Counted from the stretch's first letter, positions 4,142 through 58,111 are shown. The stretch: DNA of 64,000 bases from an uncultured Chromatiaceae bacterium (GCA_964403135.1 CAYOFE010000001.1:1647-65646), one strand, 5' to 3'. Made by a program: numbers and translations. The notes: a model not told the origin generated them from the sequence alone.

Positions 4142-7108
<2,967 letters not shown>

Positions 7109-10230: not shown

Positions 10231-10306
10231 CCGCCGTCACAATCCGGCACAAGCGCTGTGCGCCAATCGATGGAACATAGCCCTCCCCGCCCGCACAATC
10301 CCGCTC

Positions 10307-11164: not shown

Positions 11165-11214
11165 ATCCCGGGCCGAGCGGGGCAAACGGGCCGCGCCCCG
11201 GTTAAGATAGGCGC

Positions 11215-11592
11215 ATGCACCGCGGCGATGAGATCGAGATCGAAGTCGAGAGCGCCTACCTGCCGGACCAGTCCGACCCGGGGGCGCCACGTTACGTGTT
11301 TGCCTACACCGTGAGTATCCGCAACCGCGGCTCCGCGGCGGCCACATTGCTGACCCGGCGCTGGGTCATCACGGATGCCAATGGCAAGGTGCGCGAGGTC
11401 GAGGGCCAGGGCGTGGTCGGCGAGCAGCCGTGCATCCCGCCCGGCGAGACGCACCGCTACTCCAGTGGCACGGTCATCGAGACACCGGTCGGCGTCATGG
11501 AAGGCATGTACGGCATGCTCGGCGAGGACGGCGTGTCGTTTCCCGCGCCGATTCCGGCCTTCCGGCTCGCCGTGCCCGGCATCGTGCACTGA
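11215..11592 (+). CDS. apaG: ApaG (DUF525) protein
   Basis: 125 aa with RYVFAYTVSIRN and RRWVITDANG motifs. Precedes apaH. Confidence 0.9.
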   Translation: MHRGDEIEIEVESAYLPDQSDPGAPRYVFAYTVSIRNRGSAAATLLTRRWVITDANGKVREVEGQGVVGEQPCIPPGETHRYSSGTVIETPVGVMEGMYGMLGEDGVSFPAPIPAFRLAVPGIVH

Positions 11593-11631
11593 CGGCGCAG
11601 GTTGCCGCCGCCACGCGCCGGCGCTGAATTC

Positions 11632-12456
11632 ATGGCCGTTTACGCGATCGGCGACGTCCAGGGCTGCTACGACGAGCTCGGACGCCTGCTCGATGCGCTG
11701 AAGACCGACCCGGCCGAGGACGAACTCTGGTTCGTCGGCGACCTGGTGAACCGCGGACCCGCTTCCCTCGAAGTCCTGCGACTCGTGAAATCTCTCGGCC
11801 GGGCCGCCGTTGTCGTGCTCGGTAATCATGATCTGCATCTGCTGGCCTTCGCGCATGGCCGCGAGGGTGTCGACGCGGAACTGCGCCCGGTGCTGGATGC
11901 GCCGGATGCCGCCGAGCTGATCGACTGGCTGCGCCAGCGGCCGCTCGCGCACTACCGGCCGGATCTCAACACGCAGATGGTGCACGCCGGCGTGCCGCCG
12001 GAGTGGGACCCGCTGCAGACCGTAAAGCTGGCGCGCGAGGTGGAAAGCGTGCTGCGCGGATCAGGCTGCGGCGCGTTCCTTGCCGCGATGTACGGCAACC
12101 GCCCGGAGCGCTGGTCAGCGGAGCTCGCTGGCATCGACCGCCTGCGTTTCATCGTCAATTGCCTGACCCGCGCCCGCTACTGCCACCGCGACGGGCGCAT
12201 GGACTTCCAGCACAACGGGCCGCCCGGTTCACAACCGCCGGAGCTCGTTCCCTGGTTCGACCTGCCCGGCCGCGCCACGCAGGCGGTGCGCATGGTGTTC
12301 GGGCACTGGTCCTCGCTCGGGCTGGTGCAGCAGGCGAACCTGATCGGCCTCGACACCGGTTGCGTGTGGGGACGCAGCCTCAGCGCGGTGCGCCTCGACG
12401 GCCCGGCGCGGATTTACTCCGTACCCTGCCGCTGCTACAGGCCGCTGGGCGCCTGA
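11632..12456 (+). CDS. apaH: Bis(5'-nucleosyl)-tetraphosphatase, symmetrical
   Basis: MAVYAIGDVQGCYDEL and GDLVNRGP metallophosphatase motifs. Start moved to ATG 11632. Confidence 0.95.
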   Translation: MAVYAIGDVQGCYDELGRLLDALKTDPAEDELWFVGDLVNRGPASLEVLRLVKSLGRAAVVVLGNHDLHLLAFAHGREGVDAELRPVLDAPDAAELIDWLRQRPLAHYRPDLNTQMVHAGVPPEWDPLQTVKLAREVESVLRGSGCGAFLAAMYGNRPERWSAELAGIDRLRFIVNCLTRARYCHRDGRMDFQHNGPPGSQPPELVPWFDLPGRATQAVRMVFGHWSSLGLVQQANLIGLDTGCVWGRSLSAVRLDGPARIYSVPCRCYRPLGA

Positions 12457-13460
12457 CGGACCGGTGCAGTTGGGCGTTGCCCGGCACTCAGGCAACGACG
12501 CGCGTCACCCGGCGCACGTCCCGTCCAGTTTCGATAAGCATGGCAGAAAGAACTCTGCTCGCGATAGCCAAGCCGGGCGGCGATCTCCTGCAGGCTGAGC
12601 TCACTCGATGCCAGATAGTCGTTGGCCATCTCCATGCGAAGTTCCTGCAACAGCCGATGAAACGTCGTGCCGTGCGCGCGCAGCTCGCGCTGCAGGCTGC
12701 GTGTCGACTTGGCGAGCCGTTGCGCAACTCGGCCAACACTGACCTCCCCATCCGGAATCAACTCGATCACCGCCTGGCTTATCGCGGCGAGCCCGCTGTT
12801 GCGGCGAAACGTGGCCAGCAGCTGCCGGGCGTGCTTTTCCAGCAGTGGCACGAGCGAGGCCTCCGCGGTACATAACGGCACCTCGAGCCAACGGCGCGCC
12901 AGCGAGAAACCGTTGCGTTCGGACCCAAACTGCAGTGACGAGCCGAAAATCGTCTCGTGCAGCGACGGGTCCCGCGGACGCGGATAGGTGAACGCGGCCT
13001 GCAGCACCGGCGGCTCATCGCCGAGCAGCCACACGCCGAAGTAGCGCACGCCCGACATCAGCAGGTCGATGAATTCGCGCGGCTGGTCGAGGCCGCCGAA
13101 CTGCCAATGCAGATGCAACGCATCGTTATCGACAGCAACGTTCAGCTTCACGCCGTCGGCGACCAGGCGCTGGAAGCGCGAGATGCGCGGCAAGGCATCC
13201 AGCAGCGTCGGACCCGCCATGACGAGATACCCGGTGATCGCGAAACAGGTCGGGTTCAGCATCCGGCCGGCACGCAAACCGATATCGTCATCGCCGCTCT
13301 GCCGGCGCAACTCGCCGAGCGCCCGGTGCAGGGCATACAGGGGCACGCGTGCGCCGGCGCAAGCCGCCTGCCTCTGCGCCGGCAACGCGTAACCCATGGA
13401 CCGGCCGACGCGGCAAACCTCGCCGTACAGGGCGGCCGAAACCGTAGCTGTGCTGTTCAT
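12435..13460 (-). CDS. AraC-family transcriptional regulator
   Basis: C-terminal double HTH (LSLQEIAARLGYREQSSFCHAYRNWTG). Start placed at ATG 13460 (MNSTATV), giving ~341 aa. Confidence 0.85.
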   Translation of the reverse strand: MNSTATVSAALYGEVCRVGRSMGYALPAQRQAACAGARVPLYALHRALGELRRQSGDDDIGLRAGRMLNPTCFAITGYLVMAGPTLLDALPRISRFQRLVADGVKLNVAVDNDALHLHWQFGGLDQPREFIDLLMSGVRYFGVWLLGDEPPVLQAAFTYPRPRDPSLHETIFGSSLQFGSERNGFSLARRWLEVPLCTAEASLVPLLEKHARQLLATFRRNSGLAAISQAVIELIPDGEVSVGRVAQRLAKSTRSLQRELRAHGTTFHRLLQELRMEMANDYLASSELSLQEIAARLGYREQSSFCHAYRNWTGRAPGDARRCLSAGQRPTAPVRQAPSGL

Positions 13461-13667
13461 GGCAACGGCGTCGTCCCCCCGGGCGACAGTTGCGCCTGAA
13501 CAATTAACATGGCGCCTTTCAACAAGCAAACCGCCGGTGCTGCGGTTAAAAGGCCACGGTTGGGGAAGAGGGCAATCGCAGATCGCTGACCTGTACGTCA
13601 CGCGACGTGGTGCACCGCAAGAAGTACCCTTCACGTCATCGGTCGGAATTATTCAAGGGAGAAATAG

Positions 13668-14507
13668 ATGATGCGAATCATGACACTGTTGTTAGGCCTG
13701 ACGCTGATAGCCGCTGTTCAAACGGGCCTGGCGGCACAGATGGACCACGATCCCGCTGCGTCGTGCTCGGTGCGCGTGATCTACCCGTCGACCGTACCGG
13801 CCAACGCCGAGGTGTTCGTGATCGGCGTGGGCACCGCGATGTCGCGCACCGATTACGACTTTCTCGGCGCCCAGCTCACGGCCAAGGGCTATGTCCTCGT
13901 CGCGATGGACCACAACCCGGGCAACATGGTGAAGACCGACGAGACCAGGTACCGCAACTGCGTCAACGCAGTGAAATCAGCGTTGCCGGGCTGGCTCGCC
14001 CCTTACGGGCTTGCCTCCGTCGCGCATTGGATCGTTGGCGGGCACTCGGCCGGCGGCCAGGCCGCGCAGTATGCCTTTGCCAACAACCCCGGCCTCGGCA
14101 GCGCGATCTTCAGCATCGACCCGTATAACCTCAGCAGTGCGCCAATCGTCAACGGTCCGGCGCTGTACTGGGGATTCAACGTCACAACCTGTTTCGTCAG
14201 CATCAATGACGCTGCGAAAGCCGGTTACTACCGCACGCAGGGTCAACGCGCCTTCGTACGGGTGAAGAAGGTTTACTCCTTCGGGCCCTGCGGCTATTCA
14301 CCGAAGTACTTTCACTGCAGTTTCTGCGACGGACACTGCCCCGCCTGCACCAACTGCATGACCACGCCGAACTCGTTCTTCGTAGATATCGCCAACAGCG
14401 TGCAGAAGTTCGTCAACGCGGCGTTTTACGGGACCTGGTCGAAGGCCAACCTGACCGTGTCCATGACCACGCCCACCGAACTCTTCGTCGATAGCGACGC
14501 GCCGTAA
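13668..14507 (+). CDS. Secreted alpha/beta-hydrolase-like protein with Cys-rich C-terminus
   Basis: Signal peptide, GGHSAGG nucleophile-elbow-like motif, and a CxxC-rich tail (HCSFCDGHCPACTNC). Locally AT-richer by eye. Confidence 0.55.
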   Translation: MMRIMTLLLGLTLIAAVQTGLAAQMDHDPAASCSVRVIYPSTVPANAEVFVIGVGTAMSRTDYDFLGAQLTAKGYVLVAMDHNPGNMVKTDETRYRNCVNAVKSALPGWLAPYGLASVAHWIVGGHSAGGQAAQYAFANNPGLGSAIFSIDPYNLSSAPIVNGPALYWGFNVTTCFVSINDAAKAGYYRTQGQRAFVRVKKVYSFGPCGYSPKYFHCSFCDGHCPACTNCMTTPNSFFVDIANSVQKFVNAAFYGTWSKANLTVSMTTPTELFVDSDAP

Positions 14508-39761: not shown

Positions 39762-40724
39762 CTACCGATTCGCGTCAGGGCGCCGCTGCGCCCTGCGCAG
39801 GTAACCCGGCGCCACATCGGCGAGATCCGCAGCAGAAATTCCCAGCCAGCCAAGGCCTGGATGCTGCCCGGTAGCAACGCTTGGCACCTTCATGGAGTCG
39901 AGGTTGTCGCGCGACATGAGTGTCTCGCCCGGCAGCAGTTCCATCGCCAGGGCCTGCAGCCGGGCCAGGGGGCCTGGAAGTCCGAGCACGGGCCGCGGAT
40001 GTCCCGACCACTGGCCAGCAAGCCTCACGATCTCTTTCAGCGTGTACTCCCGTGGGCCGGCACATTCGATGGTGAGGCCGATGGTGTCGGGGCGGTCGAG
40101 ACACGCGACGATCGCCCCGGCCACGTCCTCCACCCACACCGGCTGGTAGCGTGAGTCGGCCCCCGCCAGCGGTATCACCGGGAACACCGCCAGCAGCCGG
40201 GCAAAAAGGTTCAGAAACCGGTCGGGGGCGCCGAAGATTACCGACGGGCGGAGCACGGTCAGGTCAAGGCCAGCTTCCCTGAGCATCTGCTCGCCCCGAC
40301 CCTTGGAACGCAGGTATTCGCTGGGGCCGTCGGCGGCCGCGCCGAGCGCACTCACATGCACGAGCCTGCGCACGCCGGCCGTCCGGCACGCCCGTGCGAG
40401 CCGGCGCGGCAGATCGGCGTGCACGCGCCCGAATTCGGCTGCCGAGCCATGCAGAATCGCGATCAGGTTGACGACCGCGTCACGACCCGCGACCAGGCGG
40501 GCGAGCACCGCGTCGTCGTGCACATCGGCCGCGATGACTTGGACGCCATTGACTGGCGTGGCCACGGCTGGCCCCAGCCCACGGCTTGGCACGGTGACCG
40601 CGCACGCCGGACGCGCCGCGAGCATGGTGCACAGGCTTCTCCCGAGGAACCCGCTGCCGCCAAGGACGAGAACGTCGCGCACCGCCGGCCGCACAGTCGT
40701 CCGGCGCTCAGGCGGGGCGGGCAC
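39762..40724 (-). CDS. NAD(P)H-binding atypical SDR (NDUFA9 / NmrA-like)
   Basis: VLVLGGSGFLGRSL Rossmann motif, 320 aa. Overlaps the preceding gene by 17 nt. Confidence 0.75.
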   Translation of the reverse strand: MPAPPERRTTVRPAVRDVLVLGGSGFLGRSLCTMLAARPACAVTVPSRGLGPAVATPVNGVQVIAADVHDDAVLARLVAGRDAVVNLIAILHGSAAEFGRVHADLPRRLARACRTAGVRRLVHVSALGAAADGPSEYLRSKGRGEQMLREAGLDLTVLRPSVIFGAPDRFLNLFARLLAVFPVIPLAGADSRYQPVWVEDVAGAIVACLDRPDTIGLTIECAGPREYTLKEIVRLAGQWSGHPRPVLGLPGPLARLQALAMELLPGETLMSRDNLDSMKVPSVATGQHPGLGWLGISAADLADVAPGYLRRAQRRPDANR

Positions 40725-41478
40725 GTACCGGATTCGTCGCGGGAGGTTGCAGCAGCGAGACGAGCGTCACCACCACCGCTACCGCGCAGCCTGCCGCGGC
40801 GGCGAACCGTACCGCAGCGCTGGTCGGCAGCGTCTGCAGGACGATGCCGAGCGAGGCCCAGGCGAATACCGCGGTGAAAACGGCATCGCGAGTCTGCACC
40901 CCGGCAGCCGAATAGATGCCGGTCGCGGTGACCACGGTGAGCAGCGCCCACTCCTCCATGGCCAACCCGAACGGGTAAACGCCGAGGTCATAGAACCACG
41001 CCGCAAGGTTCGCGAGCGTGGCGGTGGTAATCCAGCCGAGGTACAGGCTGAACGGCATATCCACGCACCATCGCTCGCGGCGTGATGACGGCGCTGCATG
41101 GCCCAGGCGCACGTAGACCAGCAGAAGGCTCAGCAGCAGAGCAACCATGAGCACGAAGCTCGCCGCGATCAGCTCGTAGTGCCACATGAATATCCATGCG
41201 GCATTAGCCACGCAGCTGACGAGGTACGGAGCCTCGATGGCGCGCAGCCTCGCGTTGACCGACTCCGACGCCCGGGCCGCGTAGACGCCAAATGCAATCA
41301 GCCCGATATAAATGAGGCTCCAGATGGAAAATACCCACCCGGCGGGCGTGAACCCCGTCGGGTAGTTGGCGCTCATTTCGCCGGTGTTGATGCCATTGAT
41401 CGGGACGATATTTGCCGCAGCATTGACGCCAATCACCAGGACTGTCGCAAGCAACGGCAGATATCGCCTCATCACCAT
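40708..41478 (-). CDS. TspO/MBR-related tryptophan-rich membrane protein (long form)
   Basis: Polytopic. FTPAGWVFSIWSLIYIGL and W-rich helices resemble proteins annotated as tryptophan-rich sensory protein. Assignment from memory only. Confidence 0.5.
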   Translation of the reverse strand: MVMRRYLPLLATVLVIGVNAAANIVPINGINTGEMSANYPTGFTPAGWVFSIWSLIYIGLIAFGVYAARASESVNARLRAIEAPYLVSCVANAAWIFMWHYELIAASFVLMVALLLSLLLVYVRLGHAAPSSRRERWCVDMPFSLYLGWITTATLANLAAWFYDLGVYPFGLAMEEWALLTVVTATGIYSAAGVQTRDAVFTAVFAWASLGIVLQTLPTSAAVRFAAAAGCAVAVVVTLVSLLQPPATNPVRARPA

Positions 41479-42849
41479 TTACCCCGCGAAGTCGTCGAGC
41501 AGGATCAGGCCTGCGGACGCGCCCCCGCCGGCGGCATCACGCGCCACTGCAGTATAGACCCCGCCAGCCTGCACGGTAACCGTCACGTCGAGCGCGACCT
41601 GGCTGGAATCGCCGGCCGGCGTCAGCACCACGCGATAATCACCAGCCCCAAGCGGGACGTAGCCGGTGTCCGCCTGGAACGGCACGGCTGCGAACGCGGC
41701 GGTGTCGTCAGTGATGTCCGTATCGGCCTCGTCGACGACATAGATGTCCACCTCGCCGGCGGCTGGCGAGGCATGCACGAGCCGCACCTTCGCCTCGGTC
41801 GCTACGCGACGGTTGTCGTCGGCGAGAATCAGCTGCGAGATGTCGGCCAGCAAGCCGGTTGCCAGCACCGTATACGCCTTGCCCGCGGCGAGCGTGGCGT
41901 CGAAGTCCAGCACCACCGTGTTCGTGCCAGCTGCCGCGACCTTGAAGTTATAGGCATCCGCGGGCACCGCCAGGTAGGCGTCGGCGCCGGGGGCGACATC
42001 CGGGTAGGCCAAGCCGGAAACAGGCGGGCTGCCGAAGTCATCGTTCACGATCACGTCCACCGGGGGCGCATCCGGCGAGGCATGCACGACACGAACGTCC
42101 GCGGGGGTGCTGACATCGAGAATCTCTGCGCTGCCGGCGCCATCCAGAGCCACGAGCGAGATCGGCGCATCGCCGGTGCCGGTGTTCTCCACCGCAACGA
42201 TCAGCAGATCGGCTCCTGCGTCGAGCGGCAGGGCGCCGGAGTCGAAAACCACCGAAGCCGCGTCGCCCGCCAGCGTGACCCTGATCTGGTAGTCACCGGC
42301 CGGCACTTCAACCGGTCCCAGTTCTTCCTTGAAACTGAAGCTGCCGAGCGGTGTCTCCGCGCCGAGATCGGCTCCGGGCGCGGTGACGTAGACGTCCACC
42401 GCGGGCGCGCCGGGCGCGGCGTGCACGACCTGCGCGCGAATATTGCCGGCACCCAAAGGCTCCTGCGGGTTGGCGATGACCAGCGGCTCCTGTGTCGCGT
42501 CACCGACTTTGCCCACGGCGATCACGCTGTAATCGGTATCGCCATCGAGGTTCGTGTCGGGAAGATCGATCACGGTCGCATTTCCGCCCGGGATGATCCC
42601 TTCCACCGCGATGTCGTAGCTGCCTTCATCGAGATCGCGGAAAGCTGACCCGGTCTTGTAATCAACGCCCTCCAGCACCGCGTCGCCATCCACGATGACG
42701 TTGACCTTCGGCGCATCGGGAGATGCGTGCAGCACGCGCAGTGCGAGTTGCGCCGGCTGGAACGTCACGTCATCATCATCGTCGTCGCAGCCAGCGGCGA
42801 GAACCACCGCCATAAGAACCGGTGCAATGGCGAGAATTCTTTTCATCAT
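41479..42849 (-). CDS. DUF4397 repeat lipoprotein
   Basis: Lipobox LAAGC then a poly-Asp tract. Four repeats begin LRVLHASPDAPKVNV, AQVVHAAPGAPAVDV, VRVVHASPDAPPVDV and VRLVHASPAAGEVDI. Confidence 0.75.
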   Translation of the reverse strand: MMKRILAIAPVLMAVVLAAGCDDDDDDVTFQPAQLALRVLHASPDAPKVNVIVDGDAVLEGVDYKTGSAFRDLDEGSYDIAVEGIIPGGNATVIDLPDTNLDGDTDYSVIAVGKVGDATQEPLVIANPQEPLGAGNIRAQVVHAAPGAPAVDVYVTAPGADLGAETPLGSFSFKEELGPVEVPAGDYQIRVTLAGDAASVVFDSGALPLDAGADLLIVAVENTGTGDAPISLVALDGAGSAEILDVSTPADVRVVHASPDAPPVDVIVNDDFGSPPVSGLAYPDVAPGADAYLAVPADAYNFKVAAAGTNTVVLDFDATLAAGKAYTVLATGLLADISQLILADDNRRVATEAKVRLVHASPAAGEVDIYVVDEADTDITDDTAAFAAVPFQADTGYVPLGAGDYRVVLTPAGDSSQVALDVTVTVQAGGVYTAVARDAAGGGASAGLILLDDFAG

Positions 42850-42936
42850 GTCGGACTCTCCCGGGACACAATGTCCCTGCGTTTGAGCCCATTCGTCGCG
42901 CCGATCGGCGCAGATTCAGTGGTGCGGGGTCTCTGC

Positions 42937-43509: not shown

Positions 43510-43657
43510 AGCCGACCACGACCTGCCCCAGAACCAGCGCGACACCGCTATAAATGGATTGCGGTTGAATCCATCGGTGCTACCCGTGGCGAATAGCAGC
43601 CCAGCAGGCGCAATGCTTGGCCTGTTCAAGGCAATCAACCACCCAGGGAGTCTTACT

Positions 43658-44179
43658 ATGAATTCGATCGCGAGGAATTTTGGAACCCGACGCAGCATGC
43701 TGGTAGCGAGCCTGCTGGTGTTCGGCGCCATCGGCCTGTCGCTGTCACCGTCGGCAAAGGCCGGCGGGAAGGACATCGTGGACACCGCCGTCGCTGCCGG
43801 CTCTTTCAACACGCTGGCTGCGGCGCTGAAGGCTGCCGGCCTGGTCGACGCGCTCAAGGACACCGGTCCGTTCACCGTGTTTGCGCCGACGGACGCAGCG
43901 TTCGCCAAGCTGCCGGCCGGCACGCTCGATGACCTGCTGAAACCCGCCAACAAGGAAAAGCTCAAGGGCATCCTGCTCTACCACGTGGTTTCCGGGAAAA
44001 TCATGGCCGCTGACATCAAGGGCGAGGCCAAGCCCAAGACCCTGCAGGGCGCTACTCTCGACGTGAAGGCAGCCGCTGGTGGCGTGACGGTTAACGGCGC
44101 CAAGGTCACCTCGGCCGACGTTGGGGCCAGCAACGGCGTGATTCACGTGATCGATGCGGTGGTCCTGCCGCCTGCCTGA
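43658..44179 (+). CDS. Fasciclin (FAS1) domain protein, secreted
   Basis: Start moved to ATG 43658 (RBS AGGGAG). Motifs [14 protein letters not shown] and [13 protein letters not shown]. Confidence 0.9.
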
Positions 44180-44224
44180 TCCGGGTTTCCTCAGGCCAAC
44201 CGCCCAGGCAAAGACAGGGCCCCG

Positions 44225-44257
44225 GGGCGGGCACGGCACCCCCTGCCGTGTCCGCCC
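44225..44257 (+). terminator. GC-rich hairpin after the fasciclin gene (no U-tract)
   Basis: 14-bp stem (one G-T pair) with CCCCC loop. Lack of a T-run makes intrinsic termination uncertain. Confidence 0.35.
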
Positions 44258-44285
44258 GCTTCAATAGGCGCTGCGTTCGTCGTGT

Positions 44286-44942
44286 ATGATGCTGGAAGTA
44301 ATAGCAAAATGGCCGGTCAGCACGAGTCCCCTCCACGACCGGGGTCTCGCTCCGGATCGGCCGCAAGCCGCAGTGAGCCAGCAACCGACCATCCTCGAGC
44401 GCATCGCCGCAGGCGACAGCGCCGCAGTACAGGAATGCATCAATACCTACGGCGACCTGATCTGGTCGCTGGCGCGTCGCCTGTTGCGCAACCATGCCGA
44501 TGCCGAAGACGCCGTGCAGGACATTTTCATCGACCTGTGGAACAGCGCATCGCGCTTCGACCCCAATGTGGCGAGCGAGGTGGCATTTGTCTCGACGATC
44601 GCGCGAAGGCGCCTGATTGACCGACTGCGCCAGCAGGGCCGTCGCCCCGGTATGGATTCGCTCGACGACGACGAGGCCGGCGACGCACGCCAGCCCTTCA
44701 TCCTGGCGCAGAACGAGGAACAGTCCGACGTAGCGGTGGTAGCGCGGGTGCTGGCCGAGATGGACCCGCAGCACAGCCGTATCCTCTCGCTGTCGCTCTA
44801 TGAGGGCTACAGCCACAGCGAGATAGCCGAACAGCTCGGCATTCCGCTCGGCACCGTAAAGACACGCGTGCGCCGCGGCCTGATACACATCCGCGAACAA
44901 CTCGGCATTGCAGCTCCGGACACCGAGGAGGCGGCCGGGTGA
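44286..44942 (+). CDS. ECF-type RNA polymerase sigma factor
   Basis: Region 2 (DAEDAVQDIFIDLW) and region 4 (YSHSEIAEQLGIPLGTVKTRVRRG). The true start may lie downstream of 44286. Confidence 0.9.
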   Translation: MMLEVIAKWPVSTSPLHDRGLAPDRPQAAVSQQPTILERIAAGDSAAVQECINTYGDLIWSLARRLLRNHADAEDAVQDIFIDLWNSASRFDPNVASEVAFVSTIARRRLIDRLRQQGRRPGMDSLDDDEAGDARQPFILAQNEEQSDVAVVARVLAEMDPQHSRILSLSLYEGYSHSEIAEQLGIPLGTVKTRVRRGLIHIREQLGIAAPDTEEAAG

Positions 44943-45772
44943 TGGCGCAACCCGTACGCAATCGGGCTAAGGTTCTGGACCTGCTCGCCGGCGAGGCCGC
45001 GGGCGATCTCAGCCTGGAGGAGTCGCTGGAACTCGCAGCGCTGCGCCGCCCGGATCCCCTGGCGGGTTCCGAGCAGCTGATGACCGCTGCCGGTCTGGCG
45101 CAGTTGTCCTTCCTCAAGGCCGATCGGCGCGGTGTCGAGCGTATGCCCGAAAATCTCCAGGCGCGCCTGCTGCACAGCGCCAAGGCATGGTCCGCGTCTC
45201 GTGCCGGCAATAGCCAGGTCACCGACATCGCGGTAGCGCGGCGCGAGCGTCACGTTGCTGCCACGCCCTCGGCGCCGCAACGCCAGCCGGTGGCGATGGC
45301 CGGCTGGGCAGTCGCTGCAGCGCTCGCCGTGGCGTTCGTTGTTTTCCGCGCGAGCGACCCTGGCGCTCCCGGTCGGATCAGTGCCGAGCAACAGCGCGCG
45401 CACCTGATGAGTTCGGCCACCGACCTGTTGCATGCCCCCTGGTCGCCGCCCAGCGCGCCCGGCTACGAGGGTGTCCGCGGCGATGTGCTCTGGAGCAGCG
45501 CGCGGCAGGAGGGGTACCTCCGGCTGGCCGGCTTGCCGGAAAACGACCCGGCGCGCAACCAGTATCAGCTCTGGATCGTCGACCCGGAGCGCGATGCGAA
45601 TCCCGTGGATGGCGGCGTGTTCGATGTGCCGTCCTCAGGGGAGGTCACCATTCCCATACAGGCCAAGCTCGCGATCGGCCGGCCCCGTGCCTTCGCGATC
45701 ACTCTCGAACAGCCTGGTGGAGTGGTCGTTTCGAAAGGGCCGTTGCTGGTGGTCGCTGCAGTCGGCAGCTGA
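44942..45772 (+). CDS. Anti-sigma factor with RskA-type C-terminal domain
   Basis: ATG overlaps the sigma stop (TGATG). Central TM segment (MAGWAVAAALAVAFVVF). C-terminal YQLWIVDPE...AFAITLEQPGG resembles anti-sigma-K RskA. Confidence 0.75.
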   Translation: MAQPVRNRAKVLDLLAGEAAGDLSLEESLELAALRRPDPLAGSEQLMTAAGLAQLSFLKADRRGVERMPENLQARLLHSAKAWSASRAGNSQVTDIAVARRERHVAATPSAPQRQPVAMAGWAVAAALAVAFVVFRASDPGAPGRISAEQQRAHLMSSATDLLHAPWSPPSAPGYEGVRGDVLWSSARQEGYLRLAGLPENDPARNQYQLWIVDPERDANPVDGGVFDVPSSGEVTIPIQAKLAIGRPRAFAITLEQPGGVVVSKGPLLVVAAVGS

Positions 45773-45796: not shown

Positions 45797-46474
45797 GTGG
45801 CCGACATTCGCGGAGCATACAGCCAGATGTTGCCGGACCAGCGCATTGCACAAATACTGGCCGCCGCCGCCGAGTACCGCATTGCTGACTACGAACGCTG
45901 CCTGGCCGAGGCGGCGTCGCAGATGAACCCGGAGGAACTGGTCGAGCAGCTGTTCGCACCATTGCTCCGGGAGGCTGGCGACCGCTGGCACAGCGGCGAA
46001 CTCTCGATCGTGCAGGAGCACATGCTGTCGAGCGCGGTACGGCGCCAGTTGTACTATGTACTGGACCGCCATGCGCGCGCGTCAGCCGGTCCGGCCATTG
46101 CTTTTACCACGCTCAGCGGCGAGCGTCACGAAATGGGCAGCCTGATGCTGGCGGTTGTCAGCGCCAGCCGGGGCTTTCGCGCGATATACCTCGGCGCCGA
46201 CCTGCCCGTTGACGAGGTCGGACGCTTCTGCACGCAGGTTGACGTCGCCGCGGTAGCGATCAGCCTGGTGACCAGCCCGGTGGTCATCGACGCCTACGCC
46301 CAGTTGCAAACGCTGCGCCGGCTCACCAATCCACGGGTGCAGATCTGGATCGGTGGCCAGGCGGCGCGGCTGCTCGATGCCGCGCAACTGCCGGCGGGAA
46401 CCGTGACGATCATGGACATGCAGCAATTTGACGCGCAGCTGGCCGTGCTGCGCGAGAGGACAATCGCCAAATGA
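45797..46474 (+). CDS. Stand-alone CarH-type cobalamin-binding module (no DNA-binding domain)
   Basis: W-x9-EH (W64...E74 H75; TGG at 45986-45988) and ExHxxG (E109-R-H111-E-M-G114). Only 24 nt separate it from the anti-sigma stop, so there is no room for a MerR HTH. GTG start. Confidence 0.8.
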   Translation: MADIRGAYSQMLPDQRIAQILAAAAEYRIADYERCLAEAASQMNPEELVEQLFAPLLREAGDRWHSGELSIVQEHMLSSAVRRQLYYVLDRHARASAGPAIAFTTLSGERHEMGSLMLAVVSASRGFRAIYLGADLPVDEVGRFCTQVDVAAVAISLVTSPVVIDAYAQLQTLRRLTNPRVQIWIGGQAARLLDAAQLPAGTVTIMDMQQFDAQLAVLRERTIAK

Positions 46475-47595
46475 CACCACGCAACCGCCGGCGGCTGCTC
46501 GCCTCAGGTATCGCGCTGACATTGATCGTTGCCGTCGTGTTCTGGAGAACCCGCCCCGAACAGGCCGCGGTAGTGACCCCGGTGCAACGCGATGTGGTGG
46601 AGGTCGTGGTGGCCAGCGGCAAGATCCGCGCCGTACGCCAGAGCGTGGTCGGCGCCGAGTCAGCGGGCATCGTCGAAAGCGTGGAGGTCGCCGAGGGTGA
46701 CTCGGTGAAGGCCGGGCAGTTGCTCGGGCGACTGCGGCTCGGCGAAACGGATGCGCGGCTCGCCCAGACGCTCGCCTCACTGCGGGCGGCGGAAACCACG
46801 CTGCGCGGCGAGGAATCGCTTCTCGAGGCATCGCAACGCGAGCTCAATCGCGCACGCGAGCTCGCCGCGCGCAGGCTCGTGCCGGCGGCCGAGCTGGAGG
46901 ACGCCGAATCGGCCGAGCGGCTGCAGCGGACCAAAACCGACGCAGCACGCGCGCGGCTCGAGGAAGCGCAGGCCGAGGTCGCCAAGGTGCGACCCGAGTT
47001 CGGCAAGCGCGAGGTGCGCGCACCGTTCGACGGAGTCGTGATCGAGCGGCTGGTGCAGCCCGGCACCGGCGTGACGAGCTCCACGGGATGGTTCTCGATC
47101 GCCGAAATGAGCGCTACCGAAATCTACGTCGAAACCGACGAGAACAACCTCGGGCGCCTGAAAGTGGGCCAGCCCGCCATCGCGGTCGCTCCCGCCTACC
47201 CCGACAAGCCCTTCGACGCGCGCCTGACCCAGGTCGGGCCCAACGTCGACAGCGAGCGCGGCGTGGTCGGCCTGCGCCTGCGCGCCGACAACCTGCCGCC
47301 ATTCATATTGCCCAACATGACGATCGACGTGAACATCGAGGTGAAGCGCACCGACAAGGCCATAGCAGTGCCCGCGAGCGCCGTATCGCTGCAGGGGCCG
47401 CCCCATGTGCTGGCGATTGGCGATGGCGGCCGCCTCGAAATGCGCCGCGTGGAGATCCTGGGGCGCAACCCCGAGTGGGTCGCGGTGCGGGGTCTCGATG
47501 GGAACACGCGGGTGCTGCGCGAGGTGCGCGGCGGCGCTGCCGGCGATCGCATCCGGCCGATCGAGGCCGAGGTAGCGGGGCCGCCACGCCGATGA
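46471..47595 (+). CDS. HlyD/MacA-type periplasmic adaptor (membrane fusion protein)
   Basis: ATG overlaps the preceding stop (ATGA). N-terminal TM segment, coiled-coil hairpin and barrel-sandwich pattern. Confidence 0.85.
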   Translation: MTPRNRRRLLASGIALTLIVAVVFWRTRPEQAAVVTPVQRDVVEVVVASGKIRAVRQSVVGAESAGIVESVEVAEGDSVKAGQLLGRLRLGETDARLAQTLASLRAAETTLRGEESLLEASQRELNRARELAARRLVPAAELEDAESAERLQRTKTDAARARLEEAQAEVAKVRPEFGKREVRAPFDGVVIERLVQPGTGVTSSTGWFSIAEMSATEIYVETDENNLGRLKVGQPAIAVAPAYPDKPFDARLTQVGPNVDSERGVVGLRLRADNLPPFILPNMTIDVNIEVKRTDKAIAVPASAVSLQGPPHVLAIGDGGRLEMRRVEILGRNPEWVAVRGLDGNTRVLREVRGGAAGDRIRPIEAEVAGPPRR

Positions 47596-48842
47596 AACTC
47601 AGCTACTTCACGCTGACGGTGGCGCTGCGGCACCTGCGCTATGGCGTCGGCCAGTCGCTGCTGACCATCGGCGTGGTCGCAATCAGCGTGCTGCTGATCG
47701 TCTACCTGCGCACCGTCATCGGCGGCACGCAGGTGCGCATCGTCAACAACGTCACCGGGGCGATTCCCCACATCGTGCTCGAGCCTCCCGAGCGCACACC
47801 GATGGCGGCCTGGCGGCTGCCGCCGCGGGAGCGCGACACGATCTATGTCGGCGAGTCCGTGAAGCTGCCCCGCGCCATGGACAAGATCGACGACTGGCCG
47901 CAGTGGCTGCAAGCCCTCGATCGGGATCGGCAGTTCACGGTGGTTTCGCCGGTTGCCAGCGGCAACGTCTTCATGTTCCGCTCGGCGCGACGCCAGTCGG
48001 TGCGCATCACCGGCGTGATGCCGGAGCGCCATGATGCAATCGTCAACATCGAGGCCAACCTCGTCGAAGGGCGCTTTCTGCAACTGATTTCCGGCGAAGT
48101 CGCGCTTGGCCGCAAGCTCGCCGACCAGCTTGGCATCAGGCTGCGCGACAAGCTGCGGCTGGTCGGGCCCGGTGGCCAGGCGCTGTCGGTCACTGTCGGC
48201 GGCATCTACAACACCGGTTTTGGCGCGCTCGACGACGGACAGCTGTTCATGAACCTGCGCGATGCGCAATCGCTGCTCGAGCTCGGCAGCTCCATCAGCA
48301 ACATCTCGCTGCGCGTACGGGAGCTTTTCGCGGCAGACAGGATCGCGCAGGGACTCGCGGTGCGCATGCCGTTCAAGGTGCGCTCCTGGATCAGCGACAA
48401 CCCGAGCATCTTCGGCACGCTCGACGCGCAGAACCAGACCATCGACCTGGTCCTGATCTCCACCATCTTTGCGGCAGGCTTCGGCATCGCCAGCATCCTG
48501 ATCATGTCCGTGACGGGCAAGTACCGGGAGATCGGCATCCTCAAGGCAATGGGCGCGACACCGCCCGAGATCCAGACCATCTTCGTCGTGGAGGGCTTCC
48601 TGCTGGCGGTGCTTGGCTGCTTCGTCGGCATTCCGGCCGGCATAGCGCTGTTGCAGGCGCTGTCGCAGATCCGCGCGCCGGGGCCCGGCGGCAGGATCCA
48701 GTCGGTGTTCCTCATCGAGATCGATCCGGTACTGCTCGCCGGCGCGGCCGCAGTGGCCATCACGGTTGGGGTCACCGCCGCGTTCTTTCCCGCGCGCCGC
48801 GCAGCCAGTATCGACCCGATGGAAGTCATCCGGGGTGCCTGA
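47592..48842 (+). CDS. ABC transporter permease, FtsX/MacB/LolC-like
   Basis: Start moved to ATG 47592 (overlaps the adaptor stop). Large periplasmic loop and C-terminal FtsX TM bundle. Confidence 0.85.
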   Translation: MKLSYFTLTVALRHLRYGVGQSLLTIGVVAISVLLIVYLRTVIGGTQVRIVNNVTGAIPHIVLEPPERTPMAAWRLPPRERDTIYVGESVKLPRAMDKIDDWPQWLQALDRDRQFTVVSPVASGNVFMFRSARRQSVRITGVMPERHDAIVNIEANLVEGRFLQLISGEVALGRKLADQLGIRLRDKLRLVGPGGQALSVTVGGIYNTGFGALDDGQLFMNLRDAQSLLELGSSISNISLRVRELFAADRIAQGLAVRMPFKVRSWISDNPSIFGTLDAQNQTIDLVLISTIFAAGFGIASILIMSVTGKYREIGILKAMGATPPEIQTIFVVEGFLLAVLGCFVGIPAGIALLQALSQIRAPGPGGRIQSVFLIEIDPVLLAGAAAVAITVGVTAAFFPARRAASIDPMEVIRGA

Positions 48843-49609
48843 TGGCAAGCACGCCGGTCATAGAGCTGCGTGACGTCGGCAAAACCTACCAGACCGGCGA
48901 AATCCAGACCCCGGTGCTCTTCGACGTGTCGTTCACGGTGTACCGCAGCGAGTTCGTCGCCATCGTCGGTGGCAGCGGCTCGGGCAAGACCACGCTGCTG
49001 AACCTCATGGGCCTGCTCGACCGGCCGAGTACCGGCCAGATCCTGATCGAGGGCCGTCCGGCAAGCGACCTCGACGAGCCGGGCCGCGCGCAGATGCGCC
49101 GTGAGCGACTGGGGTTCATCTTCCAGTTCCATTACCTGCTGCCGGAATTCAACGTCCTGGAGAACGCCCTGATGCCGTGCCGCATGAAAGGGGCGGATTT
49201 CGAGGCCCGGCAGGAAACGCGCATGCGGCAGTTGCTCGAGACCGTGGGCCTCGGCGACAAGCTCAGGAACCGGCCCAGCCAGCTCTCCGGAGGCCAGCAG
49301 CAAAGGGTCGCGGTGGTGCGCTCCCTCGCCAACAATCCGGCGCTGGTGCTGGCCGACGAGCCGACCGGCAACCTCGACAGCCGCAGCGGCCGGGTGGTGT
49401 TCGACCTGATGCGATCGCTCAGCCGCGAGTCGGGCACGACCTTCATCATGGTCACCCACGATGATGACTTTGCCCTGGAGGCCGACCGGGTTATCCGCAT
49501 CAAGGACGGCCGGATCCAGCACCTGGCGGCGGCCGAGCGGCCCGCCGGCGCCGGGCCGTCGCAGACCGCGAATCCAATCCCGCCTGCGCCGACGAATTAC
49601 CTCACGTAA
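48842..49609 (+). CDS. ABC transporter ATP-binding protein (MacB/LolD-like)
   Basis: Walker [10 protein letters not shown], signature LSGGQQQR, Walker [12 protein letters not shown] overlaps the permease stop. Confidence 0.95.
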
Positions 49610-49664: not shown

Positions 49665-50414
49665 ATGAGCCCACCGCCAGTACACGCCCTTGCCGCGTCC
49701 ACGCCCGTCGAAGTCGGCTCGCTGTTCCGCCTGCCCGTGCCCGGGCCTGAAGCCGGGCTGCGGCCAGAAGCCATCGCGGTACGCAATGCCCTGATCCGCC
49801 GCGGGCTGGAAACGCCGATGGTCGGGAACCCCCTGAGCGCCGAGGAAAAACGCCAGCGCATCCAGGCGCATTTCACCGAGATCATGAAAGTGCTCGGCCT
49901 CGATCTCAGCGACGACAGCCTCATGGACACGCCGCGGCGCATCGCCAAGATGTACGTCAACGAGATCTTCGGCGGGCTCGACTACCGCAACTTCCCGAAG
50001 CTGACCGTGGTCGAGAACAAGATGCAGGTCGACGAGATGGTTCGAGTCGCCAACATTAACCTGTCCTCCACCTGCGAACACCACTTCATCACGATCGACG
50101 GCACCGCGACCGTCGCCTACATTCCCGGCGGCAAGGTAATCGGGCTTTCAAAGATCAACCGCATCGTGGCTTTTTTCGCACAGCGGCCGCAGATCCAGGA
50201 ACGTCTCACCGAGCAGGTCCTGCTTGCTTTGCAGACTCTGCTCGAGACTGACGACGTCGCCGTCAGCATCAACGCCATGCACTTCTGCGTGAAAGCCCGC
50301 GGCGTGATGGACGCCAGCAGCCGCACCACCACCACCGCGCTCGGCGGCGCCTTCAAGACGAACGCCGAGACGCGCAAGGAGTTCCTTGCCGGCGTGGCAG
50401 GCGCGGCCCAGTAG
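49665..50414 (+). CDS. folE: GTP cyclohydrolase I
   Basis: Start moved to ATG 49665 (RBS GAGGGAGGGAG). Motifs SSTCEHHF and RPQIQERLT. Confidence 0.95.
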
Positions 50415-50700: not shown

Positions 50701-50936
50701 GGTCTGATCCTTCCCCGTCCAGAGGGTTGGCCTGCCGACAGTGGCCGGGCGATTGTACTCGACCAGCGACGGCAACGGCCTGGCCTGCTCCAGCCAGCCT
50801 GCGCTGGTGCTCAACGCGATGCCGGGAACGGCTTCACGTTGCGGTGGGCAGCCGCCGCCCCGCATGCAGAATCCGTGAACACACGGCGCGCGAACTTGCC
50901 CGTATTGGATCTCAATTTCGGCAGGGGAAGCGCCAC

Positions 50937-52373
50937 GTGACCTCGCTGCTGTGGTTCAGGCAGGACCTGCGGCTCGCCGACAACCCGGCGCTGCGCGCGG
51001 CTGTGGACAGCGACGGGCCCGTGATCCCGGTCTACATTCACTGCCCGGAGGAAGACGGCCGCTGGCCACCCGGAGCCGCATCGCGCTGGTGGCTGCACCA
51101 CTCCCTGCAGTCGCTCGATTCTGAACTGCGCCGCCGCGGCTCTCGGCTGCTGCTTGCCCGTGGGCAAGCGCTAACGGCATTGCGGCGGTTGATTGTCGGA
51201 ACCGGCGCCCGCACCGTCTTCTGGAACCGCCGCTATGAACCCGCGGCGGCGCAACGGGACGAATTCGTGCGCCGGGCGCTCGAGGCCGATGGCATCGCGG
51301 TCCGCACGTTCAATGCGTCGTTGCTCATGGAGCCCGCTGCGATCAGCACGCGCGAGGGCCGCCCGTTCCAGGTATTCACGGCGTTCTGGCGGCGCGCAAG
51401 CAACGCATTGGAGCCGCCCGTCCCGCAGCCAGCGCGGCGCAGGATCGAGCCGCCGGGGACCTGGCCCGAATCTCTGCCTCTCGCGTCATTGGGGCTCTTC
51501 CCGCACAAGCCCTGGCATCACGGGCTTGCGTGCGGATGGCGGCCCGGCGAAGCGGCGGCGCATGCGCGGCTTGATCTGTTTACGGGCGATCTGCTCGCCG
51601 CATATGCCAGGGACAGAAATCGCCCCGACCACGACGGCACCTCGCGGCTTTCGCCGCATCTGCATTTCGGCGAGATCTCGCCACGCCAGGTGCTGGCGGC
51701 CGTGCTGTCAGCAGGCGCGGCGGCAGGACTCGCGCCCGGCGAGGCGCTCAAGTCGCCTTTCTTGACGGAACTCGGCTGGCGCGAGTTCGGCTATCACCTC
51801 CTGCACCACTACCCGAGCAGCAGCGACGAGCCGTTGCGTGAACGGTTCCGGCGATTTCCCTGGCGGGATGACGCCGCGGCGCTGGAGGCCTGGCAGCGCG
51901 GCCGCACCGGCGTGCCGATCGTCGATGCCGGCATGCGCCAGCTCTGGCAGACCGGATGGATGCACAACCGCGTGCGCATGATCGCGGCATCGTACCTGGT
52001 GAAGAACCTGCGCGTGCCGTGGCAGCATGGCGCGCGCTGGTTCTGGGACACGCTGGTCGATGCGGACCTCGCCAGCAACACGCTTGGCTGGCAATGGGTT
52101 ACAGGCTGCGGCGCCGATGCCGCCCCGTACTTCAGGATCTTCAACCCGGTGATCCAGGCGCGCAGGTTCGACCCCGACGGGAGCTACGTAAGACGATTCG
52201 TCCCCGAGCTCGCAGGCCTCTCCACCACACGGATCCACGCGCCCTGGGAGGCGTCTGCGGCCGAGCTGGCAGCGGCCGGCATCCGCCTCGGCGAGGACTA
52301 CCCGGCGCCGATCGTCGATCTGCGCGCCTCGCGCGAGGCGGCGCTCGCCGCGTTCAGGTCACTGCGCCGCTAG
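50937..52373 (+). CDS. phrB: Deoxyribodipyrimidine photolyase (class I CPD type)
   Basis: GTG 50937 gives TSLLWFRQDLRLADNPAL. FAD-binding TGVPIVDAGMRQLWQTGWMHNRVRMIAASYLVK present. Confidence 0.95.
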   Translation: MTSLLWFRQDLRLADNPALRAAVDSDGPVIPVYIHCPEEDGRWPPGAASRWWLHHSLQSLDSELRRRGSRLLLARGQALTALRRLIVGTGARTVFWNRRYEPAAAQRDEFVRRALEADGIAVRTFNASLLMEPAAISTREGRPFQVFTAFWRRASNALEPPVPQPARRRIEPPGTWPESLPLASLGLFPHKPWHHGLACGWRPGEAAAHARLDLFTGDLLAAYARDRNRPDHDGTSRLSPHLHFGEISPRQVLAAVLSAGAAAGLAPGEALKSPFLTELGWREFGYHLLHHYPSSSDEPLRERFRRFPWRDDAAALEAWQRGRTGVPIVDAGMRQLWQTGWMHNRVRMIAASYLVKNLRVPWQHGARWFWDTLVDADLASNTLGWQWVTGCGADAAPYFRIFNPVIQARRFDPDGSYVRRFVPELAGLSTTRIHAPWEASAAELAAAGIRLGEDYPAPIVDLRASREAALAAFRSLRR

Positions 52374-54292: not shown

Positions 54293-55668
54293 ATGCAGCC
54301 CGATCGTTGAGATCTCCGGATCACCCGTAGCGCCCTCCTGCTGTCGCTGTCGGTCGCCGCTGGCCTGGCCTGCGCGGAACCGCGGCTGGCTTCGGTCACC
54401 CGCCCGCAGGACGATTTTTTTGCCTACGTGAACGGGGAGTGGGTTGCTCAGACGCAGATCCCGGCCGAGTGGTCGAGCTACGGGTCCATCCAGATCGTGT
54501 CGGAGCGGACCGAGGAGCAGCTGCGAGCATTGATCGCGGACTCGGGCAGAACGCGCAGCGAGATGCGCAAGGCCGCGGATCTTTATGCCAGCTTCATGGA
54601 CGAGGCGCGCATCGAACGGGCAGGCGTTGCACCGATGGCGCGCGAGTTCTCGCGCATCGGGTGCCTCGGCAGTCACGCCGACGTGATCCGTCACTTCGGC
54701 TACGCGCTGCTCGCCGGTACGTCAGCGCCGGTGGATTTCTACGTCGCTGGTCATCCACTCGATCCCGATACGAACATCCTTTACCTGTGGCAATCCGGGC
54801 TCGGCCTGCCCGATCGCGACTACTATCTGCTGCAGACGCCCGAAATGGAGAAGATGCGCGCCGAGTACCGCGCGCACATCGAGCGGCTGGCCGGGCTGGC
54901 CGGCTGGCCCGATGCGGACACGATCGCCGCGACCGTTTTCGGTATCGAGACGCGGCTTGCCGAAGCCCAGTGGAGCAGCACCCAGAACCGCGATCGCGAG
55001 CGCATTGCCGGCAATCGCTACATGCTCGCCGGCGCAGCAGCCTTTGCGCCGGATCTCGACTGGAAAGCCTATCTCGACGCCGCGCAGTTCCATGTGCCCG
55101 GTGAATTCGTCATTGCGCAGGCCGACTATTTCAGGGCGCTCGGCGGTATCGTTCGCGCCGTACCCGTCGCTCAGTGGCAGGCATACCTGCGCTTCAGGCT
55201 GCTCAAGGCATATGCCCCTTACCTGAATGCCGCCATCGTCGGCGAGGATTTCGCATTCGAGGGCACGGCGCGGCGCGGACAGCCGCAGATCAAGGCGCGC
55301 TGGAAGCGCGGCGTGCGACTGGCGAACGAGGCGCTCGGCGAGCTCGTCGGGCAGGCCTACGTGACGCGGGATTTTCCACCCGCCGCCAAGGCGCGCATGG
55401 ATCAGCTGATCGCCAGCCTGCGAGCCGCCTACGGCCAATGGCTGGCCTTACGGGCGAGCAGCGGTTCTTCATTTCCTACGCGCTGGCGTGGCGCAGCAAG
55501 TTCCGCGACGGGCTGCTTCGCGAGATCCTGCTCTCCGACCCGCACCCGCCCGGCGAGTACCGGGTGCGCGGCGTGCTGCAGAACATGCCGGAGTTCTACG
55601 CCGCGTTCGGCGTGAAGGTTGGCGACGGCATGTACCTGTCGCCGGCGGAGCGCGTGAAGATCTGGTAG
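54293..55668 (+). pseudogene. M13-family (PepO/neprilysin-like) metallopeptidase, disrupted
   Basis: In-frame TGA at 54308-54310 after codon 5. The N-domain runs to about 55440, then a frame change joins directly to the extreme C-terminus (GEQRFFISYALAWRSK...VKIW). No HExxH region is present. Confidence 0.75.

Positions 55669-55882: not shown

Positions 55883-58111
<2,229 letters not shown>

Follow-up and report, generated by a model that had tools for sequence, protein, structure and literature searches.

The window analysed here, a stretch of 64 kb of DNA, carries on its forward strand a gene for a stand-alone CarH-type cobalamin-binding protein (CBD; 45827..46474, 215 amino acids, or 225 amino acids from an alternative GTG start at 45797). 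Three genes of the same orientation lie upstream of it: a fasciclin-domain protein of the Mpt70/83-like type (43658..44179, a probable start, with 43613 also possible), a SigK-like ECF sigma factor of 189 amino acids read from GTG (44373..44942), and an RskA-type anti-sigma factor (44939..45772) with a cytoplasmic N-terminal part, one transmembrane segment and a periplasmic RskA_C domain. Downstream follow, on the same strand, a MacA-like periplasmic adaptor (membrane fusion protein, MFP; 46471..47595), whose ATG overlaps the CBD stop codon (ATGA), a type VII ABC permease of 416 amino acids resembling LolC/E/F (47592..48842), and a LolD/MacB-type ABC ATPase encoded as a separate polypeptide of 255 amino acids (48842..49609). 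Pfam identifies HlyD_D23/HlyD_3 in the adaptor and MacB_PCD and FtsX in the permease, and the PDB matches of the pump proteins are MacA, LolC/E/F and MacB.

The initial annotation had described a 225-aa reading frame starting with GTG at 45797, only 24 nt past the anti-sigma stop; this frame (45797..46474, +) is present in the window, and the stop codon is TGA 45770-45772. The ATG at 45827, 54 nt from that stop, is the likelier start, because a GGAG sequence is located 11 nt upstream of it and because the identical database entry P0001 as well as all database homologues begin at the equivalent position. Upstream of the CBD the reading frame stays open no further than the anti-sigma stop, and the anti-sigma gene is read in this frame too, so that a sequencing error could only fuse the CBD to RskA_C and never uncover a helix-turn-helix (HTH) domain. 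An HTH hidden in frame 5' of the CBD, which the initial annotation had named as a finding that would speak against its proposal, is ruled out, since the frame is shut by the anti-sigma stop and the in-frame sequence beyond it encodes the periplasmic RskA_C.

The Pfam search detected B12-binding_2 in residues 18-87 (E 6e-13) and B12-binding in residues 102-196 (E 8.7e-8, just above the cut-off), and nothing beyond these two B12 domains; the profile comparison suggested at the outset, with B12-binding, B12-binding_2 and MerR models, thus returned both B12 domains and no MerR or other HTH match. When all PDB sequences were searched, Thermus thermophilus CarH (TtCarH) and its isolated cobalamin-binding domain ranked first (E 1.7e-22), a similarity far beyond chance. 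Corrinoid methyl-transfer proteins and methionine synthase match more weakly, at 1e-8 or worse (MttC at 2.7e-8), and AerR (PDB 7TE2) at 2.7e-4.

CarH homologues have been defined in a review by the motifs ExHx2Gx41SxV/Tx22-27GG and Wx9EH, the latter being the cap for the adenosyl group that is missing in MetH-type methylcobalamin binders (PMC8156234). In the numbering of the 215-aa protein, Wx9EH is represented in the four-helix bundle by W54-H55...E64-H65, and the motif of the Rossmann domain is complete (E99-R-H101-E-M-G104, x41, S146-L-V148, x27, G176-G177). The strings DRWHSGELSIVQEHM and GERHEMG, quoted in the initial annotation as CarH signatures, both occur in the 225-aa frame. The corresponding TtCarH residues W131-H132, E141-H142 and E175-x-H177-x-x-G180 align with these motifs: RWHSGELSIVQEH stands opposite AWHRGEIGVAEEH (W131, H132, E141, H142) and GERHEMG opposite GERHEIG, with H101 at the place of the lower histidine ligand H177. 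The histidine next to the tryptophan, H55, is the equivalent of TtCarH H132, the upper histidine ligand required for light-driven disassembly (PMC10442372). CarH oligomerises entirely via its cobalamin-binding domain, with R176, D201 and G192 serving the head-to-tail dimer and the dimer-dimer contact and G192Q known as the dimer mutant (PMC8221060); the equivalents R100, D125 and G116 are all present in the CBD.

An AlphaFold2 model of the protein alone, built on an alignment of 139 sequences, reached a mean pLDDT of 97.7 and a pTM of 0.92 and adopts the CarH fold, a helical bundle on a Rossmann domain. The top 50 matches of this model in a Foldseek search of the PDB are all TtCarH chains (TM 0.73-0.85), so the structure prediction that had been proposed as a check agrees with the sequence matches. 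The protein is a predicted CarH-type AdoCbl-binding module without a DNA-binding domain, homologous to the light-sensing domain of CarH; the original view of a B12 photoreceptor module of this kind is fully supported by the Pfam and PDB matches, the fold model and the family survey given below.

A word-indexed search with the CBD gave about 90 clusters of 205-247 aa and 48-77% identity, all without MerR, followed by MerR-fused proteins of 295-315 aa at 47% identity or less. In an exhaustive search of representatives the family representative scored 213 bits versus 167 bits for the first MerR-fused protein. A MerR domain was sought in 31 family members and found in none, and the MerR-type HTH reported as absent from the window protein is therefore absent from these relatives as well. 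In a neighbour-joining tree 87 stand-alone sequences form one clade with a MerR-fused sister, a pattern that one loss of the DNA-binding domain could account for. The CBD belongs to a monophyletic, HTH-less gammaproteobacterial family and is not a one-off truncation. The closest relatives outside the family are MerR-fused LitR proteins of related gammaproteobacteria (40-47% identity). An ABC ATPase gene near the closest of these, in Steroidobacteraceae MAGs, was considered as an ancestral link between LitR and the pump and rejected, as it is of the unrelated Mla type and lies on the opposite strand. Two more distant stand-alone proteins, P0123 and P0127, are encoded on contigs too short to show their context.

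Invariant in the family are W54, E64, H65, G98-E-R-H-E102, G104, G116, D125 and G176-G177, the Wx9EH motif having been scored over 83 sequences; like Wx9EH, the Rossmann-domain motif ExHx2Gx41SxVx27GG is complete in the family and does not vary. Position 55 is histidine in about half of the family and glutamate or glutamine in the rest; because the H132 equivalent is not always histidine, the light-switch chemistry of the family may differ from that of CarH. Ten further positions are invariant in the family and unlike the LitR relatives (A50, V62, D80, V110, C135, V140, T149, P151, V153 and D155); most of them fall in the stretch 135-155 of the Rossmann domain, and they represent a candidate partner surface.

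The first three look-ups of relatives (CBD identity 77%, 59% and 52%) showed the MFP, the MacB_PCD/FtsX permease and the ABC ATPase 3' of the CBD in all three cases, and a sigma and anti-sigma factor only at the closest relative. A scan of 185,579 species genomes, with the window proteins mapped on by tblastn, delivered 80 loci. The family set was delimited by a CBD identity of at least 48%, plus L036 at 44%, and comprises 27 loci including L001-L004 from the earlier look-ups (L001 and L002 are one contig, as are L003 and L006); none of the 27 has room for an HTH. In these loci together with L086 and L133, 29 in all, the genes for MFP, permease and ATPase lie directly 3' of the CBD gene and in its orientation as far as each contig extends, and the CBD is the first gene of the four-gene operon throughout. 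The other loci of the scan, with CBD identities of 45% or less, are all MerR-fused, and none is accompanied by that pump.

About 20 loci have the CBD stop overlapping the MFP start, either by 4 nt (ATGA) or by a single nucleotide, and in the rest at most 8 nt separate the two; translational coupling of the CBD to the adaptor gene is the usual case. Across the loci the identities of CBD, MFP, permease and ATPase drop in parallel. Viewed from the permease, homologues form a dense set of 58-100% identity, in which the CBD is found in 24 of the 24 loci with both genes visible, down to permeases of 58-59% identity; after a gap the next homologues have 51% identity or less, and there the two loci with a visible upstream region (L134 and L136) encode MFP, permease and ATPase without a CBD, the contig of L135 ending just upstream of the permease. 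The CBD marks one pump subfamily, and the partner that stays constant across relatives is the three-part ABC efflux pump rather than the adjacent sigma and anti-sigma factors.

The order fasciclin, SigK-like sigma factor, RskA found in the window by Pfam and NCBIfam recurs in L089-L098 and L138, and a sigma-centred metagenome scan returned orthologues (50-77% identity) in the same order. The arrangement is known from mycobacteria and Yersinia as the 'mpt83-sigK-rskA minimal cassette' (PMC7509140). At several of the loci from the metagenome scan nothing B12-related follows the cassette; the sigma/anti-sigma pair is part of a self-contained unit that is widely found without a B12 protein.

Each of the 8 cassettes examined, that of the window included, has a motif GAATCC-N16/17-CGAA just 5' of fasciclin, and for this reason the motif very probably represents the SigK-type promoter of the cassette. 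The window contains four exact matches, versus 0.44 expected, and 3 of 200 simulated sequences reached three. All four are located within 42.9-50.9 kb, each 5' of a gene on the correct strand: 43567..43593 (+, N17) upstream of fasciclin, likely the promoter of the fasciclin-sigma-rskA-CBD-pump unit; 42892..42917 (-, N16) upstream of the genes for DUF4397 (41479-42849, -) and TspO (40708-41478, -); 49570..49596 (+, N17) upstream of folE (49665-50414); and 50869..50894 (+, N16) upstream of a photolyase gene (GTG 50937-52373). These searches used the plain core with N16 or N17, as a position weight matrix with spacer columns suffered from over-fitting and failed to recover true sites.

In relatives without a nearby sigma factor the motif GAA(T/A)C(C/T)-N16-CGAA was found 5' of the CBD. 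In 380 kb of family loci there are 18 exact matches to GAATCY-N16-CGAA, of which 14 are located 17-111 nt ahead of the CBD start and two more precede a SOUL-family gene immediately 5' of the CBD, so that 16 of 18 are accounted for. In other loci the motif also occurs before folE, a pyrimidine-dimer excision gene and the gene of a second, N-terminally extended B12 protein described below. Since the window has no such motif directly 5' of the sigma or the CBD gene, transcription of CBD and pump is likely to occur here by read-through from the fasciclin promoter. A hairpin 3' of fasciclin and a TATGAT box 5' of the sigma gene are conserved; the scan for sigma-70 promoters and terminators in 42.7-52.5 kb gave nothing above shuffle level, and no convincing terminator appeared in it between the sigma gene and the CBD gene. 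Rfam searches of 40-53 kb detected neither a cobalamin riboswitch nor any other RNA family.

Judged from motif positions, the CBD-pump operon is placed in a SigK-type regulon together with genes for UV and light protection (photolyase, folE, DUF4397/TspO and fasciclin). Published findings fit a light or photo-oxidative regulon: in Mycobacterium kansasii light induces phrB, tspO and the fasciclins of the SigK regulon (PMC9861118), the singlet-oxygen pair RpoE/ChrR of Rhodobacter capsulatus resembles SigK/RskA, and R. sphaeroides shows induction of fasciclin and folE2 (PMC7074977).

Among the systems compared, CarH/LitR (TtCarH, PDB 5C8D/8C31; Myxococcus CarH; Streptomyces LitR) gives the best sequence and fold match and shares the two-subdomain module, Wx9EH, ExHxxG...SxV...GG, the histidine next to the tryptophan and the equivalents of R176, D201 and G192. 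In contrast to that family, which is defined by its HTH, the window protein lacks a MerR DNA-binding domain, its gene opens an ABC pump operon and does not stand beside carotenoid genes, and its own family shows the ten specific invariant residues. The LitR-LitS locus of Streptomyces likewise combines a B12 protein with an ECF sigma factor in a light response; having no HTH, however, the window protein cannot control sigma transcription as LitR does, and its apparent role is that of a sigma-factor target, not of a master regulator. Agreement with mpt83-sigK-rskA of Mycobacterium and Yersinia extends from the canonical gene order to the conserved promoter motif before fasciclin.

AerR/PpaA, the HTH-less co-regulators of CrtJ/PpsR in purple bacteria, are also stand-alone B12 proteins for which protein-protein signalling is expected, but their sequence match is distant compared with that of CarH, the conserved neighbour here is a transporter and not a transcription factor, and no PpsR/CrtJ-type gene or photosynthesis cluster was present among the 20 neighbours scanned; an AerR/PpaA orthologue was rejected on the weak match and the missing crtJ/ppsR linkage. 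Stand-alone photocobilins (SasPcob, PDB 8J2W) resemble the CBD as B12 modules without an output domain that regulate a partner enzyme in trans (PMC10979010). They differ by an extra globin-like, biliverdin-binding domain, whereas here the two B12 subdomains fill all 215 residues; this assignment was rejected, as the helices and strands from 3 to 214 all belong to those subdomains and leave no photoglobin domain. The proteins downstream of the CBD correspond to type VII ABC systems of the MacAB-TolC/LolCDE kind (MacA-like adaptor, MacB_PCD/FtsX permease, LolD/MacB-like ATPase): the separate ATPase polypeptide is a LolCDE trait and the adaptor a MacAB trait, while the MacB-type fusion of ATPase and permease does not occur here. 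In the literature searched, no described member of MacAB/LolCDE has a cobalamin-binding accessory.

Taken with the photo-damage regulon, the pump linkage suggests that the HTH-less CarH-type module, a predicted cytoplasmic protein, is a dedicated accessory of a MacA/LolCE/LolD-type pump within an ECF-controlled response, a reading to which we give about an even chance. More tentatively, a MacB/Lol-type ABC pump could have in this module a regulatory subunit that responds to light, acts by post-translational gating and couples efflux to illumination. Photo-oxidative or UV stress would lead the SigK-type sigma factor to turn on the island including CBD and pump; the CBD would bind AdoCbl and oligomerise in the dark, as CarH does; light would cleave the Co-C bond, His55 would become the upper ligand and the helical bundle would shift. 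The change in shape or oligomeric state may then alter how the CBD touches the pump on its cytoplasmic side, with the LolD-like ATPase as the most plausible site, and tune the efflux of a light-related toxic compound to the actual illumination.

MacB-type pumps are thought to take up their substrate from the periplasmic side, and a cytoplasmic partner must therefore act on the ATPase cycle, for which the literature searched offered no precedent; domain searches showed no docking or regulatory domain in adaptor, permease or ATPase. The compound exported could be a tetrapyrrole photosensitiser, a guess based on the TspO and SOUL proteins in the islands and on the export of protoporphyrin by MacAB (PMC4263509). 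Regulation of partners through protein-protein contacts is documented for stand-alone B12 photoreceptor modules (PMC10979010). Membership in one operon and the stop/start overlap are compatible with other roles of the CBD as well.

The initial annotation had looked for the partner upstream. Spelled out, that proposal would have the HTH-less B12 module bind RskA at its cytoplasmic domain, or the SigK-like sigma factor itself, and bring about a light-dependent release or activity of the sigma factor in feedback or feed-forward; we regard it as unlikely, though the best of the alternatives. The adjacency is real, with the CBD 24-54 nt from sigma-rskA and probably co-transcribed with them in the window, L001/L002 and L005, but these are the only places where RskA stands directly 5' of the CBD (the contig of L005 ending within the RskA C-terminus), and they form one clade with CBD identities of at least 68%. 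In about 24 of the 29 loci of the family neither a sigma nor an anti-sigma factor is encoded nearby, yet the pump is retained in all. Feedback is conceivable, given that this type of sigma factor has the CBD-pump operon among its conserved targets, and this ties the two functionally even where their genes lie apart; in addition, the natural stimulus of SigK-RskA has been described as obscure (PMC9861118). Many bacteria, however, have a working cassette and no B12 protein with it (PMC7509140), and action on the sigma pair leaves the translational coupling of the CBD to the adaptor gene unexplained. Of the original idea, feedback thus stands as conceivable, while conservation favours the pump as partner.

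A B12 protein of unrelated architecture does sit after rskA or beside the sigma gene in other genomes. In L005 a 357-aa protein is encoded 18 nt upstream of a sigma factor 73% identical to that of the window and not followed by RskA; an N-terminus of about 145 aa with no domain assigned to it precedes B12-binding_2 and B12-binding, and its motifs are W-H...EEH and HDxG. Homologues of this N-extended protein form more than 120 clusters. Their genes follow sigma-RskA in L090/L091 and L138/L139, come directly after the sigma gene in L102 and directly before an ECF sigma gene in L137, and often have a SigK-type motif in front. Such neighbours can be read in favour of a sigma-bound B12 protein, but in the genomes with both proteins (L005; also L004 and L018) the N-extended one lies beside the sigma gene and the CBD beside the pump. 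Of the two B12 families, it is the N-extended one whose members track the sigma factor, which favours a division of labour between it and the short, pump-associated CBD.

Somewhat less probable again is a role in mixed oligomers, in which the module would join full-length LitR/CarH or the N-extended B12 protein and tune the light or B12 response, perhaps with a dominant-negative or buffering effect for which the short and long forms of AerR offer a parallel, an idea to which we likewise give little weight. The conserved interface residues, the MerR-fused LitR proteins as nearest relatives and the N-extended proteins in the same islands at L004, L005 and L018 speak for such contacts. Against them, the 64-kb window contains no LitR/CarH and no N-extended B12 gene, the ten family-invariant, LitR-unlike positions argue for a distinct partner surface, and the linkage to the pump is left unexplained.

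Least probable is a non-photoreceptor, be it a corrinoid carrier, storage protein, chaperone or methyl-transfer protein that hands cobalamin or its photolysis product to the pump or shields AdoCbl: the database label 'methanogenic corrinoid protein MtbC1', a fold common to corrinoid proteins and a transporter in the operon that could mean a substrate relation point that way, but the NCBIfam corrinoid-protein models reach only 26.8-46.6 bits versus cut-offs of 215-370, MttC ranks far below CarH, the Wx9EH adenosyl cap is invariant, no methyltransferase genes or cobalamin riboswitch lie nearby and the neighbourhood is a light or UV-damage island; a methyl-transfer protein of the MtbC/MttC/MtgC type was rejected on the scores and the missing methyltransferase partners.

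B12 photoreceptors have so far been understood mainly as DNA-binding repressors (CarH/LitR) or as partners of transcription factors (AerR), and genome surveys have noted other architectures without functional characterisation (PMC10979010). Stand-alone B12 modules acting through protein contacts are thus already known; new, as far as the literature searched goes, is a conserved B12 family that goes with an ABC pump and stands under ECF control, and that literature held nothing relevant on a link between B12 domains and ABC pumps. The SigK-type motif and regulon, together with the B12 family that tracks the sigma factor, bear on the question which signal drives SigK-RskA. The CBD could also serve as a compact natural light- and B12-responsive protein-protein switch for optogenetics. 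With an ABC pump as its sole constant partner, the sharply defined CBD family offers a testable case of non-transcriptional B12 light output; if light gating of the pump by the CBD is true, the CBD would set a precedent as a photoreceptor with post-translational control over an ABC transporter, the first one known, perhaps in the efflux of tetrapyrrole photosensitisers.

The ECF-type promoter-like motif GAATCC-N16/17-CGAA (SigK-type) occurs in four exact copies in the window, at 42892-42917 (-), 43567-43593 (+), 49570-49596 (+) and 50869-50894 (+), compared with 0.44 expected, and all four are located upstream of genes of a single island: DUF4397/TspO, fasciclin-sigma-rskA, folE and photolyase. 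All 8 of the related cassettes checked carry the motif ahead of fasciclin, and at other loci it is found ahead of folE, Pyr_excise, the gene for an N-extended B12 protein, and the gene for the stand-alone CarH-type cobalamin-binding protein (CBD) with its downstream pump operon. In the related locus L004 a SOUL-family gene (7309-7977, Pfam SOUL match) lies between the motif and the CBD gene; an equivalent gene is placed in the same position in L018 solely by the similarity of the upstream DNA. The SOUL gene would be co-transcribed with CBD and pump in both loci, and its position adds to the tetrapyrrole theme, which includes TspO.

Within the cassette, the fasciclin stop codon is followed by an inverted repeat that is GC-rich and conserved (GGCGGGCACGGC...GCCGTGTCCGCC, window 44216-44260). 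A conserved CGTGTATGATG box is located 29-35 nt downstream of this repeat and upstream of the sigma gene in the window and in L001 and L002, both from one contig of the window's own clade; repeat and box may represent an attenuator plus a second promoter. The anti-sigma (44939-45772) and CBD (45797-46474) ORFs share a reading frame and are parted by a single TGA (45770-45772), as is also the case in L001. Read-through of this codon, which would attach a B12 domain to RskA at its periplasmic end, seems implausible, and the shared frame is probably a coincidence.

The window homologue of an M13 peptidase (54320-55665 (+)) matches the L001 orthologue over residues 1-407 in one frame and over residues 584-659 in another. 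It lacks some 176 residues, which indicates an internal deletion, a pseudogene or an assembly error. The gap falls where the second domain of the orthologue, Peptidase_M13, would be; the window ORF keeps M13_N only. The island is flanked, as in L001, by a cytochrome cd1 nitrite reductase-like gene (55883-58111 (-)) with two cytochrome c domains and a Cytochrom_D1 domain.

The closest full-length LitR genes in Steroidobacteraceae-like MAGs run convergently to an operon for Mla-type lipid transport, which comprises STAS-MlaE, an ABC ATPase, MlaD and ABC_trans_aux, with a PAS-GGDEF-EAL gene ahead of these genes; in L040 the operon (10745-14283 (-)) adjoins the MerR-fused LitR gene (9665-10615).

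The N-extended B12 proteins form a large family of 350-380 aa, with an N-terminus of about 145 aa without domain assignment followed by a CarH-like B12 module; the 64-kb window encodes no member. SigK-like ECF sigma genes directly adjoin their genes in three arrangements, in two of which RskA is missing between or after the pair. One such locus is L005 (B12 gene 5528-6601 (-), sigma gene 4940-5509 (-)), and further loci are L090, L091, L102, L137 and L138/L139. The family is a candidate B12- or light-dependent regulator, possibly an anti-sigma factor, of the SigK-type sigma.
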